The translations under genes were made by a program, and so were the position numbers. The notes under the pieces are model-generated. The model had not been told where the DNA came from and ran no database searches. It saw nothing but the letters and a program-made list of their open reading frames with translations. A DNA stretch of 41,317 bases from Escherichia phage vB_EcoS_HSE2: the sequence record MG252615.1. One strand, given 5' to 3'. Of this stretch, positions 14,858-33,062 are shown in pieces (positions within the stretch are counted from its first letter, which is position 1; every line of letters begins with the position of its first letter).

Positions 14858-14886
14858 TTGACATTATGAAAATCTTCGTTTAAGAT
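14858..14886 (+). promoter_or_regulatory. Sigma70-type promoter pointing into the noncoding region
   Basis: TTGACA, 17 nt, TAAGAT; divergent from the 14814..14842 promoter. Confidence 0.45.
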
Positions 14887-15129
14887 GCTTCTATATCTTA
14901 GTTACTTTGATTCCTGTTCACCTTGTAAGAATGTTTAACCCGTGCGTCAAGCAAAGGGTTAAACACAGGCTTACTGAACATGAGAATTATCGTAACTTTC
15001 CTTCCTAAGTATCTCCGGTTGCCCTGGGCAAGCTCTATTCTCATCGGCGGCATATCTCTTAAGTATCTGATTTTCTTAATGTGCCGTAGATTCGCAACCG
15101 TAAAAATGTAACGATTATTGGGCAGGCTT

Positions 15130-15153
15130 AAGGCCTGCCCTTTAGTTACCAAG
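15130..15153 (+). terminator. Hairpin terminator-like element in noncoding region
   Basis: Stem GGGCAGGC/GCCTGCCC, loop TTAAG, then TTTAGTT. Confidence 0.4.
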
Positions 15154-18384: not shown

Positions 18385-18693
18385 TTGGATAAATTTACTG
18401 AAACAGTGACAGGCTGGCTTCTCGCTGCCGCACTCGCCGGTGGGGTAATAGGACTAAGGCAACATAAGTCCGTTATTTCTGGCCCCATCGACGGCTTCTG
18501 CTTTATCGCAACTGGCTTCACCTGCGCCGTGTTTGGCGCACCTCTTGCCGCCCAATGGTTCGGCATTACGGGTGAGCGTGAGATAGCCGGCCTCGGATTT
18601 ATCATCGCTATTCTCTGGATGCCTATCTATTCCCGCCTCTCTGGTATCGTTGCCGGAGAATACATCGCACGCCGAGGGGGTACAGATGAATGA
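18385..18693 (+). CDS. Putative holin (three hydrophobic segments, TTG start)
   Basis: GGAGGA then 6 nt then TTG; three predicted TM-like stretches; just upstream of endolysin. Confidence 0.45.
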   Translation: MDKFTETVTGWLLAAALAGGVIGLRQHKSVISGPIDGFCFIATGFTCAVFGAPLAAQWFGITGEREIAGLGFIIAILWMPIYSRLSGIVAGEYIARRGGTDE

Positions 18694-18958
18694 GTTATTC
18701 TGGTTCGGCGGTATGCTGGCAATCGGAGGCACATCGCTGTTTAATGTGTACCACCCCAGCGTGGACGACGGGCTGTTTGGTCGGGTGCTCTATATCCTGA
18801 CCGCTATCGTCTGCGTCGCCGGATGCATCCACCTGTTACAGGGCAGCATGTCCCCGACGTTGCCTGAGACATTAATCACATTAGTTGCGCTGCGTCAGAT
18901 TCGCCAGGCGTGGCTGTCGTATGGAGGACATAAGCGTGTCTCGAAATATTTCAGATAA
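18686..18958 (+). CDS. Putative holin/antiholin membrane protein (two hydrophobic segments)
   Basis: GAGGGGG Shine-Dalgarno; hydrophobic; overlaps both neighbours. Confidence 0.45.
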   Translation: MNELFWFGGMLAIGGTSLFNVYHPSVDDGLFGRVLYILTAIVCVAGCIHLLQGSMSPTLPETLITLVALRQIRQAWLSYGGHKRVSKYFR

Positions 18959-19421
18959 TGGATTGCATTTTACCGCTGCGTTCGAGGGGTTCCGTGGAAC
19001 CGCGTATCGCGCGACACCGAACGAGAAGTACCTGACTATAGGCTATGGTCACTACGGACCTGACGTAACGCCCGGCAAGACCATCACCCCAGGGCAGGGT
19101 CTCCTGCTACTGAATCGCGATATGGCTAAGGCTGTAGCTGCGGTTGACGCTGCGGCGCACCATTCACTGACACAGGCGCAGTTCGACGCTGTTTGCGACC
19201 TGGTGTATAACGCGGGCGCCGGTGTGATTGCAGCTACCACCGGCACGGGTAAGGCACTGCGTTCTGGTGATACTGCAACACTGCGGGCTAAGCTGGCACT
19301 GTTCATCAACCAGAACGGCAAACCACTACTTGGCCTACGTCGCCGTACAGCCGGGCGGCTGGCATTGTTCAACGGTAAACCGTGGCAAGAGGCGGAGGCT
19401 ATTGGGAGGGCCGTTAAATGA
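18936..19421 (+). CDS. Endolysin, T4-lysozyme-like (glycoside hydrolase family 24)
   Basis: Catalytic region FEGFRG..Y...T.GYGH characteristic of phage lysozymes; GGAGGA before GTG 18936. Confidence 0.8.
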   Translation: MSRNISDNGLHFTAAFEGFRGTAYRATPNEKYLTIGYGHYGPDVTPGKTITPGQGLLLLNRDMAKAVAAVDAAAHHSLTQAQFDAVCDLVYNAGAGVIAATTGTGKALRSGDTATLRAKLALFINQNGKPLLGLRRRTAGRLALFNGKPWQEAEAIGRAVK

Positions 19422-24688: not shown

Positions 24689-24712
24689 ATAGCCCCGAAA
24701 GGGGCTTTCTTA
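24689..24712 (+). terminator. Hairpin terminator/attenuator after portal
   Basis: Stem AGCCCC/GGGGCT with GAAA loop, then TTCTT. Confidence 0.5.
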
Positions 24713-26255: not shown

Positions 26256-26285
26256 AAAAAGCCCCGCTATGGGGCTTTATTTTTA
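26256..26285. terminator. Bidirectional intrinsic terminator
   Basis: Stem AAAAGCCCC/GGGGCTTTT, loop GCTAT, A-run before and T-run after. Confidence 0.7.
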
Positions 26286-26354
26286 TATGAACATCGCGGT
26301 GATAGCCGCAGCCGATACCCACAAAACAAAATAAAACATCACACTATTTGTCAT
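26283..26354 (-). CDS. Hydrophobic peptide (23 aa), third gene of lipoprotein cassette
   Basis: Verified by hand: MTNSVMFYFVLWVSAAAITAMFI; ATGA overlap with lipoprotein stop. Confidence 0.25.
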   Translation of the reverse strand: MTNSVMFYFVLWVSAAAITAMFI

Positions 26355-26695
26355 TTGCATTTCTCGTCGTATGTTTGTTGTAACTGCGACAGACGATTAC
26401 CGGCTGTCATCTCGTCCATAGAAGGCCCGGCGCCCGTGTCCATAAAGAACAGCGGAACAATCAGGAATGCGCCTGTAACACCGAGTACAACGTTAGTACC
26501 TATTTGCTTATTAACACGGTGCGTAGCGTTGGCTTGAGCTTGTTTTGTCGTGGCGATTCTCGATAGTAACTGATTACATGTTGCCGTTGTATCCCCTGCC
26601 TGATAAACCTGTAAAGCCGGGTCTGGCAACGACCTTACGCAACCACTCAAACAAACGGCTACAACACCCGCTACTGCTAATTTAATATATTTCAT
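26351..26695 (-). CDS. Lipoprotein (114 aa) in a moron cassette; candidate superinfection-exclusion / receptor-masking factor
   Basis: Signal peptide with lipobox L-S-G-C; opposite strand to flanking head genes; own promoter and terminator. Confidence 0.55.
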   Translation of the reverse strand: MKYIKLAVAGVVAVCLSGCVRSLPDPALQVYQAGDTTATCNQLLSRIATTKQAQANATHRVNKQIGTNVVLGVTGAFLIVPLFFMDTGAGPSMDEMTAGNRLSQLQQTYDEKCK

Positions 26696-26793
26696 AGTTC
26701 ACCATTACCCGTGTCAATTTCACCAATACCACTACAAGCCCAAAGAAACATCACCGCATCAACTGCAATTACTACTGAAATAACGACTAACAT
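26692..26793 (-). CDS. Small transmembrane peptide (33 aa), first gene of lipoprotein cassette
   Basis: Verified by hand: MLVVISVVIAVDAVMFLWACSGIGEIDTGNGEL; GAGGAGG Shine-Dalgarno; ATGA overlap. Confidence 0.3.
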   Translation of the reverse strand: MLVVISVVIAVDAVMFLWACSGIGEIDTGNGEL

Positions 26794-26820
26794 GACGGCC
26801 TCCTCGGTTCGATAGAATGA

Positions 26821-26849
26821 ATAGTACCCTATTATATTGGGGTGCGCAA
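26821..26849 (-). promoter_or_regulatory. Middle-class promoter driving the lipoprotein cassette
   Basis: Minus strand TTGCGC-ACCCCAATATAATAGGG-TACTAT; 30-nt core identical to the promoter at 35165..35193. Confidence 0.6.
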
Positions 26850-26915
26850 ACTATTTGTTTATGTATTCCAGTTATTCCACCAAATTGTAAATATTGGAAT
26901 AAACTATTCGAATAG

Positions 26916-26944
26916 TTGACTTTTCACCAAAAATGTGCTAAGCT
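26916..26944 (+). promoter_or_regulatory. Sigma70-type promoter preceded by 16-bp palindrome AACTATTCGAATAGTT
   Basis: TTGACT, 17 nt, TAAGCT; palindrome at 26902..26917. Confidence 0.45.
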
Positions 26945-27150
26945 CCACCTGAGCTTGTGAAGTATGAACAAGCGACCGCGGCGTGGCAGGTAACGGAGCC
27001 GGACGTTAAGTCCGAGTGTAGTTACGCTGACGCGTTCGGAAGGGCCATACTCTATTGCTTGTGTAAAAAGTAACTGGTTTACTGAGATTACGCCGTTTCT
27101 ATGTTTAAATGATAAGGACTAGCGCCCCGCTTTATGGCGGGGCTTTACTT
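26945..27150 (+). ncRNA. Candidate small RNA or structured leader (about 200 nt) between promoter and terminator-like hairpin
   Basis: No ORF longer than 9 codons; starts after the 26916..26944 promoter and ends at hairpin 27124..27143 plus U-rich tail. Confidence 0.3.
27121..27150 (+). terminator. Terminator-like hairpin just upstream of the spanin RBS
   Basis: Stem GCCCCGC/GCGGGGC, loop TTTATG, then TTTACTTAT. Confidence 0.45.
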
Positions 27151-27167
27151 ATCGAGAAAGGAGAAAC

Positions 27168-27554
27168 ATGAATCTTAAAGCAACTGTCGTAGCGGGAGCA
27201 TGTTTCATCATCCTGGCTTACGCACACGGCATCTACCAGTACCGCAGCGGCTGGAACGAAGGCCGGGCGAATCTCGTTTCGCAGCAACAGCAGGAAGCAC
27301 AGGCTGAGTTAGCGAAGAAAACACAACGGCAGCAGCAGGACGAATCAAAGGCCGCAGCCGCTGGCAACGAAGGCAAGACGAAATCAGAGGTGATTACCCG
27401 TGAAGTCGTTAAGTACATTAAAACACCTGGCCGTAGCGTGTGCACTTTTGACGATGCTCGCGTCCTGCTCAAGTCCCGCGCCGTCGCAAACGCCAATTCC
27501 ATCCCCGGATACGACGATGATGCAGCCGCCGTGCAAACTGGCGCCGCCAAGTAG
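27168..27554 (+). CDS. i-spanin (Rz-like)
   Basis: N-terminal TM segment followed by Gln/Ala-rich coiled-coil periplasmic region; embedded lipoprotein ORF in +1 frame. Confidence 0.6.
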   Translation: MNLKATVVAGACFIILAYAHGIYQYRSGWNEGRANLVSQQQQEAQAELAKKTQRQQQDESKAAAAGNEGKTKSEVITREVVKYIKTPGRSVCTFDDARVLLKSRAVANANSIPGYDDDAAAVQTGAAK

Positions 27555-27663
27555 CGACGCGGACGAGGATTTGGCTATCGACGTTCAGAACGCCGAATGT
27601 GTGCGGCAACTGAGGCTGAAAGTGTTCATGCTGCAGGATTACGTGAGGAATATTCTGGAATAG
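27400..27663 (+). CDS. o-spanin (Rz1-like outer-membrane lipoprotein), overlapping Rz
   Basis: Lipobox L-A-S-C followed by Pro-rich mature region; starts inside Rz in another frame and extends beyond its stop. Confidence 0.55.
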   Translation: MKSLSTLKHLAVACALLTMLASCSSPAPSQTPIPSPDTTMMQPPCKLAPPSSDADEDLAIDVQNAECVRQLRLKVFMLQDYVRNILE

Positions 27664-27742
27664 TTGCCTTGCATGTTGGAATAATTTATTCTTGACATGT
27701 AAATCCGGGTGGCCCGGGTTCCAACGTCCAGGGGACATACTG

Positions 27743-28369
27743 ATGAGCGAAGAAGTGAAAGACGAAACTATCGAACAACAAGAGACTAAGACCACGTTTA
27801 CCAAAGAAGAAGTTGACGCGCTGGTATCCGGTCTTAAAGCTAACAACGAGAAACTCTTGTCTGAAAAGAAAGCTGCTGCCGCTGCCGCTAAAGAAGCCGC
27901 AGATGCGAAGCTGAAAGCCGAACAGGAACGCGCAAAACAGAACGGCGAACTTGAGGCATTCGAGAAAACGTTGCGCAGTCAGTATGAGCCAGTACTCGCC
28001 GAGAAAGACGGTAAGATTAGCAAAATGGCTGAGCGTATCCTCGGCGCAGAACGTAAATCAGTTATCAGCCAGTTGTCTGGCATGTTGATTGATGAGAGCG
28101 CAGCAGATATCATCGCTATGATGGTCAAGACCGAATTTGACGGCGATGACGTTGTGACCAAGTTCACAGGTGCAGACGGTAATGTCATCACCACCGACGC
28201 AGAGCAATTTAAAAAGTATCTGCGTGAGCACAAAGCATTTTCGCATCTGATTAAAGCAGATGCAGCAACCGGCGGCGGGGCTTCCGGTAACAAGAATTCT
28301 ACTGGCGGGGCCGGTGGTGCGGACGTAATCCAGCAAAAACTTAACGCCAAATACGGCAAACGAGGATAA
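27743..28369 (+). CDS. Scaffolding protein
   Basis: Ala/Lys/Glu-rich helical protein immediately upstream of major capsid gene; AGGGGA Shine-Dalgarno. Confidence 0.55.
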   Translation: MSEEVKDETIEQQETKTTFTKEEVDALVSGLKANNEKLLSEKKAAAAAAKEAADAKLKAEQERAKQNGELEAFEKTLRSQYEPVLAEKDGKISKMAERILGAERKSVISQLSGMLIDESAADIIAMMVKTEFDGDDVVTKFTGADGNVITTDAEQFKKYLREHKAFSHLIKADAATGGGASGNKNSTGGAGGADVIQQKLNAKYGKRG

Positions 28370-29363: not shown

Positions 29364-29386
29364 AAAGGGGCTTCGGCCCCTTTTTA
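29364..29386 (+). terminator. Rho-independent terminator (UUCG tetraloop hairpin)
   Basis: GGGGC-TTCG-GCCCC flanked by AAA/TTTTT. Confidence 0.7.
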
Positions 29387-33035: not shown

Positions 33036-33062
33036 AACTAAGGCCCCGAAAGGGGCCTTTTC
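33036..33062. terminator. Bidirectional terminator, near-identical to the one at 3361..3387
   Basis: AAGGCCCC-GAAA-GGGGCCTT plus T-run; A-rich upstream. Confidence 0.7.

Follow-up and report, generated by a model that had tools for sequence, protein, structure and literature searches.

The genome of Escherichia phage vB_EcoS_HSE2 (MG252615.1), a Kagunavirus of the subfamily Guernseyvirinae, carries an overlapping gene pair which, judged from its sequence, is a two-component spanin by function class and a member of the Jersey family by sequence. We put the probability that the two proteins act in lysis as modelled below, with the Rz1-like o-spanin made from an internal GTG, at about 93%. The window referred to here is the whole stretch of DNA that was analysed, 41,317 nt in length. 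A preliminary description of the window had read the locus as an i-spanin gene with an overlapping lipoprotein ORF, and this reading is supported by the analysis. Its coordinates were also exact, with the Rz1-like gene starting inside Rz in the +1 frame and running 109 nt beyond it (27555..27663). The pair matches the published description of its family throughout and is, in this sense, already known.

The features of the locus are collected in Table 1. The i-spanin ORF begins with ATG and encodes 128 aa, while the o-spanin ORF begins with GTG and encodes 87 aa. The two starts are offset by 232 nt, (27400-27168) mod 3 = 1, which places the o-spanin in the +1 frame relative to Rz with a shared stretch of 155 nt. 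Because a TGA at 27391-27393 closes the +1 frame upstream, the GTG at 27400 is the first possible start of the o-spanin. Alternatives further downstream in the same frame, TTG or ATG, would leave just 6 or 4 residues ahead of the lipobox Cys. The Shine-Dalgarno sequence of the i-spanin gene is kept among relatives as AGGAG or GGGG, and AGGAG is the ribosome-binding site given for the i-spanin gene in the supplement of Kongari et al. 2018 (PMC6139136).

Table 1. Positions of the spanin genes, their upstream elements and the other lysis genes within the window
Feature	Position	Strand	Basis or remark
Array of TATTCC/GGAATA half-sites	26863-26914		Contains the palindrome CTATTCGAATAG
Promoter-like site TTGACT-17 nt-TGcTAAGCT	26916..26944	+	Read from the sequence; conserved in Kagunavirus and Jersey-type relatives
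Structured leader RNA (predicted), ~113 nt	26945..27057	+	Short hairpin P1, followed by a long irregular one (P2-P3-P4) and an invariant UUCGGAAGG
GC-rich hairpin, 8 bp, 7 of them G-C	27124..27143	+	End lies 24 nt ahead of the Rz start codon; resembles a terminator, but the U tract (UUUACUUAUC) is poor
Shine-Dalgarno AGGAG, i-spanin gene	27159..27163	+	4 nt before the ATG; read from the sequence
i-spanin (Rz-like) gene	27168..27554	+	ORF, phrog_2536, similarity to Jersey
Shine-Dalgarno GAGGTGAT, o-spanin gene	27387..27394	+	Within Rz codons 74-76; 5-nt spacer to the GTG
o-spanin (Rz1-like) gene	27400..27663	+	ORF, PHROG matches, K1H annotation, similarity to Jersey, open in related loci
o-spanin signal peptide (predicted), 22 codons, MKSLSTLKHLAVACALLTMLAS	27400..27465	+	Pattern match, hydropathy
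Lipobox L-A-S-C	27457..27468	+	Cys23 is TGC 27466-27468, the predicted lipid-modified first mature residue
Doubly coding stretch, 155 nt	27400..27554	+	Rz codons 78-128 and Rz1 codons 1-52
o-spanin 3' part outside Rz	27555..27660	+	Codes for Cys67 and for the conserved C-terminal helix, at about residues 55-86
Two holin genes	18385..18693 and 18650..18958	+	Extents as listed ORFs; phrog_2359 (E 3.4e-29), phrog_2508 (E 6.4e-34); phiSD1 annotation
Endolysin gene	18885..19421	+	Listed ORF, true start probably internal; phrog_33703 (E 2.3e-47), phrog_7 (E 6.6e-40)

An i-spanin is expected to have a single N-terminal transmembrane domain followed by a helical periplasmic domain, and both are predicted for the Rz-like protein from hydropathy and from an AF2 model. 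The protein has a single hydrophobic stretch, with a maximal Kyte-Doolittle 19-residue mean of 1.72 at residues 5-23. In the AF2 model a helix spans residues 3-64 with pLDDT 75-88, and the remainder is of low confidence. The AF2 models of the two spanins were made from single sequences, have an overall pLDDT of 61 and 63, and were used for secondary structure only. The translation contains two poly-Q runs (QQQQ at 39-42 and QQQ at 55-57) and two cysteines, at residues 12 and 92, of which C92 would be the periplasmic one in the predicted topology.

For an o-spanin, the expected feature is an outer-membrane lipoprotein signal without Asp at position +2, and this was found by pattern match. The N-terminus reads MKSLSTLKHLAVACALLTMLAS-CSSPAPSQTPIPSPD, with K2 and K8 in the n-region, a hydrophobic core and the lipobox LASC ending in Cys23. 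The mature part opens with CSS, so that the +2 residue is Ser and not Asp. A check of the lipoprotein signal, as proposed in the preliminary description, thus found n-region, h-region, LAS-C23 and the +2 Ser in place, and the sequence matches the PROSITE PS51257-type lipoprotein pattern. The Pro-rich region said to follow the lipobox is equally evident, with 9 Pro among the first 32 of 65 mature residues. Cysteines are found at 14, 23, 45 and 67; C45 and C67, together with C92 of Rz, are predicted to be the periplasmic cysteines available for disulfides, and their conservation can be seen in the related loci compared below. The AF2 model of Rz1 has a signal helix at 3-23, followed by a Pro-rich, disordered stretch (24-54) and a second helix (55-86; pLDDT 76-89). 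Because this last helix falls in the part encoded outside Rz, the conserved and structured portion of Rz1 is probably the portion that does not share its DNA. The overlap thus shows an arrangement in which the predicted Pro-rich linker of Rz1 shares DNA with the C-terminal part of Rz and the conserved Rz1 helix lies beyond it.

Over 2.1 kb around the spanins, identity is 99% with Shigella phage phiSD1 and Escherichia phage BUCT823, and K1H is one of many phages at about 96%. In the RefSeq record of K1H, CDSs of 387 nt and 264 nt occupy the same relative positions. Both carry the annotation "Rz-like spanin", to which "overlapping gene" is added as a note for the second. In phiSD1, the o-spanin is called from an internal ATG as a 147-nt CDS of 48 aa, and BUCT823 is unannotated. 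Both proteins match PHROG profiles of Rz-like spanins, the i-spanin phrog_2536 (E 1.5e-54) and the o-spanin phrog_5672 (E 4.5e-30) and phrog_1267 (E 2.2e-18). Compared with phage Jersey, the i-spanin is 64% identical (E 5e-58) and the o-spanin also 64% (E 3e-36), and one of the related loci used below (L043) encodes exactly the Jersey i-spanin as printed in the Kongari supplement. In the census of Kongari et al. 2018 (BMC Bioinformatics 19:326, PMC6139136), "Jersey" is the largest overlapped spanin family, with 27 members that include Jersey, SETP3, SE2, K1G, K1H and K1ind1-3. Our assignment to this family uses the similarity of both proteins, the 155-bp overlap, the poly-Q runs and the Cys45/Cys67 pair of the o-spanin.

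Membership in the lambda or P2 spanin sequence families was rejected, no Pfam or NCBIfam model being above threshold. A Pfam scan of both proteins gave no spanin match even at E up to 1, including PF03245 (Phage_lysis) and PF06085 (Rz1), and an NCBIfam scan gave no spanin family above threshold. The P2 LysC-type Rz1 model (NF038368) scored 13.3 bits (E 0.068), below its 27-bit cut-off. BLASTP detected no similarity to lambda Rz, and only a compositional match of 11/38 (E 0.017) to lambda Rz1.

The spanin genes lie about 8 kb downstream of those for the holins and the endolysin; their neighbours are a Hoc-like head-decoration gene on one side and the scaffold gene on the other. Proteins of this class reach across the periplasm and are presumed to fuse both membranes (PMC5295617, PMC6139136). 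In the model to which our probability refers, Rz would be anchored in the inner membrane via its N-terminal helix (residues 5-23), with the rest of the protein in the periplasm. Rz1 would be translated independently from GTG 27400 by means of its own ribosome-binding site, GAGGTGAT, and would then be exported, lipidated on Cys23 and cleaved by signal peptidase II. Because the +2 residue is Ser, it would be sorted to the outer membrane. By analogy with lambda Rz/Rz1 and T4 PseT.3/PseT.2, the periplasmic domains of Rz and Rz1 would bind each other across the periplasm. Covalent homodimers could form via the periplasmic cysteines, C92 in Rz and C45 and C67 in Rz1, as in lambda and T4. With the peptidoglycan gone through the action of holins and endolysin, these complexes would, again following lambda and T4, fuse the inner and outer membranes, and the cell would burst.

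A different role for the same two proteins has to be considered. They could form an envelope-spanning complex that does not serve, or does not only serve, outer-membrane disruption, and that acts for example in superinfection exclusion or in envelope remodelling during assembly. The genes are unlinked from holin and endolysin, they lie between head genes, and they have their own conserved promoter-leader module upstream, all of which would suit such a role. In the literature on the Jersey spanin family we found no experiment on lysis phenotype, lipid labelling or a mapped translation start, and because of this the spanin function itself rests on inference. However, spanins are normally required by phages of Gram-negative hosts, and no other spanin candidate was noticed in the ORF list near the endolysin, nor is one annotated there in phiSD1. 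All structural hallmarks of two-component spanins are present in the pair. The lack of linkage also has precedent: the T4 genes pseT.3 and pseT.2 are not near t and e (PMC6139136), and the unlinked arrangement has been noted in Kagunavirus papers. We consider a role instead of, or in addition to, outer-membrane disruption to be very unlikely.

In the model, the +1 frame is translated from the GTG inside Rz. An open frame in a single sequence is, by itself, no more than mildly unusual. When the synonymous codons of an unchanged Rz protein are redrawn or permuted, the probability that the +1 frame is open across the overlap is 0.07-0.23, and that of 35 further open codons past Rz is ~0.19. The combination of a start, a K/R, a lipobox and an open frame, in either alternative frame, was reached in 313 of 200,000 codon-redrawn Rz genes (0.16%).

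The comparative evidence argues decisively for a coding +1 frame. A scan of viral contigs provided 48 loci with Rz relatives of 62-98% identity, 47 of which have the same geometry. The +1 ORF is open in all 47, and the o-spanin start stays at one fixed nucleotide, as GTG in 42 and as ATG in five; the change from GTG to ATG is at the same time an R78H change in Rz. A GAGG precedes this start in 46 of the 47 overlapped loci. The lipobox Cys is present in every one of them, at the same codon as in the window or at a neighbouring one. ORF, start, Shine-Dalgarno sequence and Cys are thus all retained down to 62% Rz identity. In Jersey-type relatives, lipobox position -2 is Asn (LLNG-C), which falls outside the PROSITE-type pattern. 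A single locus, L039, has an AGG at the old start position; there the old frame contains a stop and the GAGG is absent. Its Rz is shorter, at 118 aa, and the start of its o-spanin has moved to another ATG, close to where Rz ends, so that the signal peptide is a different one, MNKLFLSAVIIGITG-C.

Selection in the two frames was assessed from pN/pS and from nucleotide diversity by codon position in 40 unique sequences from the related loci. By these measures the Rz1 frame of the 109-nt extension is clearly coding, with pN/pS 0.10 versus 1.09 and 2.52 in the other two frames. Diversity at its codon positions 1, 2 and 3 is 0.088, 0.034 and 0.250, the third being ~7x the second. In the part that belongs to Rz only, pN/pS is 0.30 in the Rz frame. 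The +1 frame there, our control for how a non-coding frame looks when it lies over a gene, has 1.07. In the mature-Rz1 part of the overlap both frames are constrained, with pN/pS 0.59 for Rz1 and 0.51 for Rz. Synonymous diversity of Rz falls from 0.32 to 0.18 in this part, a drop that is the expected mark of double coding.

The signal-peptide part (27400-27468) behaves differently, with pN/pS 0.33 for Rz versus 1.72 for Rz1. Wobble changes in Rz become mostly A/V, L/S and T/M swaps in Rz1, by which hydrophobicity is kept. In this part Rz1 retains its start, its hydrophobic character and the Cys, and the sequence itself varies. Over the first 23 Rz1 codons the constraint is, as read from these substitutions, physico-chemical and not sequence-specific. 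The preliminary description had both frames coding over the whole of 27400..27554. This is right, with the nuance that in the signal-peptide part only Rz is under purifying selection at the amino-acid level. How the overlap is shared is shown by the same alignments, with a sequence-tolerant Rz1 signal peptide opposite the conserved Rz segment REVVKYIKTPGRSVCTFD. A direct repeat between the Rz transmembrane DNA (27188-27217) and the Rz1 signal-peptide DNA (27432-27461), which match at 70%, suggested an origin by duplication; this is not claimed, as by our own estimate ~1 such chance match is expected per 1.6 kb.

The value of 1.72 is also what a non-coding frame would give, and it suits the proposal that the +1 frame is translated only from the ATG pair at 27517/27520 (MMQPPCK...). 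The product would then be a cytoplasmic or soluble protein of 47-48 aa with no lipoprotein signal, and 27400-27516 would encode Rz only. The 147-nt "spanin" CDS of phiSD1 is annotated from that ATG, and the 47 positions of the phrog_5672 profile derive from short calls of this kind. However, gene callers routinely truncate or miss overlapped o-spanins (Kongari 2018, PMC6139136), and the 48-aa call in phiSD1 is the kind of miscall of which the spanin census warns. Against a start at the internal ATG only, the frame is open from 27400 in 47/47 overlapped relatives, with a GTG or ATG fixed at that position behind a GAGG and a lipobox Cys always present, and the chance of a lipoprotein signal of this kind is 0.0016. 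The exchange of GTG for ATG goes along with R to H in Rz, and the mature overlap upstream of the internal ATG has pN/pS 0.59 versus 1.07 in the control. Taken together, these observations make translation from the internal ATG only highly improbable, and we infer that Rz1 is translated from the GTG at 27400. That the +1 ORF is an unexpressed by-product of Rz codon choice and an open intergenic stretch has next to no probability, for although openness in a single sequence is common enough (0.07-0.23 for the overlap, 0.19 for the extension), the extension has pN/pS 0.10 with a third-position diversity about 7x the second, and ORF, start, Shine-Dalgarno sequence and Cys are conserved to 62% Rz identity.

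For the spanins themselves, the analysis adds little: family, overlapped layout and even the overlap length of 155 nt have been published, and RefSeq relatives have both genes annotated. Its practical use is in annotation, where the correct call for the o-spanin in this genome would be the GTG-initiated CDS 27400..27663. The locus is also a worked example of shared constraint, in which a tolerant signal peptide is placed opposite conserved Rz sequence and the conserved helix is kept outside the overlap.

The region upstream of the pair is of a different kind. The ~300 nt before Rz are non-coding and conserved, and they remain so in Jersey-type phages, where Rz identity drops to 62-66%; promoter, leader and GC-rich hairpin are kept throughout the subfamily. 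The promoter-like site listed in Table 1 scores below the threshold of a simple consensus promoter scan; a putative promoter at this site would drive the leader and the spanin genes. The GC-rich hairpin shows a compensatory change from C-G to G-C in Jersey-type phages. A small ORF inside the leader (26957..27073, 38 aa) was rejected as a gene, as an 11-column gap in Jersey-type phages breaks its frame. ARAGORN reported no tRNA or tmRNA. No Rfam family matched anywhere in the 41,317-nt stretch at gathering scores, and in a search of 26800-27800 at E up to 10 the matches were only at chance level (best E 1.5).

The structure of the leader is supported by several comparisons. Independent minimum free energy folds gave the same topology in six of eight variants, and the leader matches a model of the element, R1, at 116.6 bits. 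Pairing is possible in 90.3% of cells versus about 35% with slid partners among 26 sequences, and 10 pairs are changed on both sides, which was reached in 3 of 500 shuffles; the alignment of the 26 leader sequences was fitted to the model, and these figures therefore lean towards structure. When RNAalifold was applied to all leader variants as aligned by MAFFT, the consensus was weak because the inner stems were misaligned, and the single-sequence folds and the model-based alignment were used in its place. The leader module was found at 223 places in 180 phage records, with more than one in some records, and what is annotated beneath it is mostly nothing or "hypothetical protein". In three related Kagunavirus contigs, a second copy of promoter and leader, 79% identical, opens the other rightward operon, some 11.6 kb upstream. 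These copies were exposed by a search of viral contigs with the pattern ACCGCGG-N(40-68)-TTCGGAAGG, which was too permissive, most of its 120 loci being chance hits. In the present genome a second leader copy was not found, and the equivalent site (14858-15140) has an unrelated promoter, leader and hairpin.

A possible role for the leader can be derived from phage HK022, whose putL and putR elements it resembles in architecture only: it is promoter-proximal, has two stem-loops with bulges and occurs in two copies in some genomes. Model R1 had no match at E up to 1 in the HK022 and lambda sequences, and for this reason no homology to put RNA can be claimed. If the analogy holds, the leader would act in cis and without a protein factor, like HK022 put RNA, such that RNA polymerase reads through the GC-rich hairpin and later intra-operon terminators. 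We regard this proposal as speculative and rather unlikely; the leader may instead be a small RNA that acts in trans, a late leader that depends on a protein, or a 5' structure that stabilises the mRNA. Were it put-like, RNA-mediated antitermination, and not a Q- or N-like protein, would determine when and how strongly the spanin and late structural genes are expressed in the Guernseyvirinae. The spanin pair would then be the first cistron behind an undescribed regulatory module of promoter, leader and GC-rich hairpin. Phage-encoded cis-acting antitermination RNAs are known from very few systems, and the leader is therefore worth a separate look.

Among known spanins, the pair is closest to its own family. 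Jersey spanin genes overlap by 155 bp, and the family has two poly-Q stretches in the i-spanin, conserved Cys45 and Cys67 in the o-spanin and a conserved C-terminal o-spanin helix (Kongari 2018, PMC6139136). The present pair shares the gene sizes (128 and 87 aa), the +1 frame and the length of the overlap, as well as the i-spanin poly-Q runs, the two o-spanin cysteines and the predicted helix. Between its o-spanin and the one in K1H we counted 8 differences over 87 positions (about 91% identity). The pair departs from the family in allelic detail only, the lipobox being MLAS-C with the Cys at codon 23 here, and TLSA-C with the Cys at codon 22 in K1H. Both alleles are valid lipoboxes and both are common among close relatives, with MLAS-C in 15 loci and TLSA-C in about 17. 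The difference stems from a cluster of substitutions at about 27450-27468 that also changes Rz residues 95-101, DDARVLL here versus DPERVQL in K1H. The FSL_SP-031 type, represented by locus L039, has homologous periplasmic domains in both spanins, but less overlap and a new o-spanin start.

With lambda Rz/Rz1 the pair shares its general plan, in which one stretch of DNA encodes an inner-membrane type II protein and, in the +1 frame, an outer-membrane lipoprotein. A Pro-rich o-spanin, periplasmic Cys residues in both proteins and the presumed last step of lysis are also common to the two systems. Lambda Rz1, however, is fully embedded in Rz, whereas the o-spanin gene here extends 109 nt beyond it. 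Mature lambda Rz1 has 40 residues versus 65 here, and lacks the C-terminal helix that is predicted for the present protein. Lambda Rz and Rz1 directly follow S and R, whereas here some 8 kb separate the spanins from holins and endolysin. In this last respect the pair is like T4 PseT.3/PseT.2, which is not linked to holin or endolysin and has an o-spanin with a predicted C-terminal helix and two periplasmic Cys residues; the T4 genes, however, are separated with no overlap, whereas those of the present pair overlap.

Directly 5' of Rz, the i-spanin gene, positions 26863-27143 of the window are occupied by a conserved module that carries no annotation. The module, in which a promoter-like site is followed by a structured leader RNA and a GC-rich hairpin, was found in 180 phage records. 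The leader RNA shows compensatory base changes across Kagunavirus, the genus of this phage, and the Jersey-type phages (relatives of phage Jersey), and no Rfam family was matched to it. The module may be an antitermination element resembling put, the cis-acting antitermination RNA of HK022, or else it may function as a small RNA or as the leader of a late operon.

In some Kagunavirus relatives the promoter and leader are duplicated, with a second, 79%-identical copy located ~11.6 kb upstream, where it heads the other rightward operon. This second copy is absent from the window. The matching site (14858-15140) holds a module which, though unrelated, has the same layout and ends in a hairpin.

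Features of the window and of loci on related viral contigs
Feature	Location	Strand	Remarks
Promoter-like site, TTGACT-17-TGcTAAGCT	26916-26944		upstream of Rz; conserved
Structured leader RNA, ~113 nt	26945-27057		upstream of Rz
GC-rich hairpin	27124-27143		upstream of Rz
Promoter-like site, TTGACA-17-TAAGAT	14858-14886		module at second-copy site
Non-coding leader, about 230 nt	within 14858-15140		module at second-copy site
Hairpin, GGGCAGGC-TTA-AGGCCTGCCC	15120-15140		end of module at second-copy site
Two promoter-leader copies	L128, 11808-11922 and 143-256	minus	related contig
Second promoter-leader copy	L063/L126 and L114/L130		related contigs
Strong GC-rich hairpin	24691-24706		between portal and head-morphogenesis genes
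Strong GC-rich hairpin	26258-26278		after Hoc-like gene; bidirectional
Strong GC-rich hairpin	29364-29383		after major capsid gene
Strong GC-rich hairpin	33040-33059		after major tail gene
114-aa predicted lipoprotein gene, MKYIKLAVAGVVAVCLSG-C	in insert, 26351-26793	minus	phrog_13472 (unknown function)
33-aa hydrophobic peptide gene	in insert, 26351-26793	minus

TATTCC/GGAATA half-sites are arrayed at 26863-26914 and again at 27645-27697, the latter around the end of Rz1, the o-spanin gene, where the sequence at the stop region reads GGAATATTCTGGAATAG. The window contains the 16-mer TTGGAATAAnnTATTC exactly two times, against a chance expectation of 0.2: at 26894, just 5' of the leader promoter, and at 27676, just 3' of the Rz1 stop and adjoining a TTGACA. 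A regulator of the phage may bind at the arrays and the two 16-mer copies. Strong hairpins also lie between the structural genes; if these are partial terminators, the genes downstream would require read-through.

The spanin genes themselves vary among relatives. Two lipobox forms are found in close relatives, MLAS with the Cys at codon 23 (the window) versus TLSA with the Cys at codon 22 (phage K1H), and the cluster of substitutions that separates them, at 27450-27468, also alters Rz residues 95-101. At the related locus L039 (1501-2090), the two genes overlap less. Rz there encodes 118 aa, and the o-spanin has a new ATG near the Rz end and an unrelated signal peptide; the former o-spanin start position reads AGG, with a stop in the former frame. 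This pair is similar to the FSL_SP-031 "separated" members treated by Kongari et al. (PMC6139136).

A two-gene insert separates the Hoc-like gene from the spanin leader; it is also carried by phiSD1, BUCT823, SZH-1, fBC-Eco01 and Golestan. Alignment to K1H-type phages ends at about 26820-26864, and the K1H annotation has nothing from the Hoc-like gene to Rz. Upstream of the insert genes, GAATAGTACCCTATTATATTGG (26819-26840) fits the motif tgAATAGTa-ccTATTat-T, a repeated motif that the fBC-Eco01 paper (PMC9825357) counts seven times and ascribes to a phage RNA polymerase; a similar sequence, AATAGGTTACTATTCA, is found at about 15238. No RNA polymerase appears in the annotation of the Shigella phage phiSD1, which is 99% identical to the window in this region. 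The layout of the insert, a lipoprotein gene near the spanins, is similar to that of lambda, in which the bor lipoprotein gene adjoins Rz, and on this likeness the insert could be a superinfection-exclusion moron.
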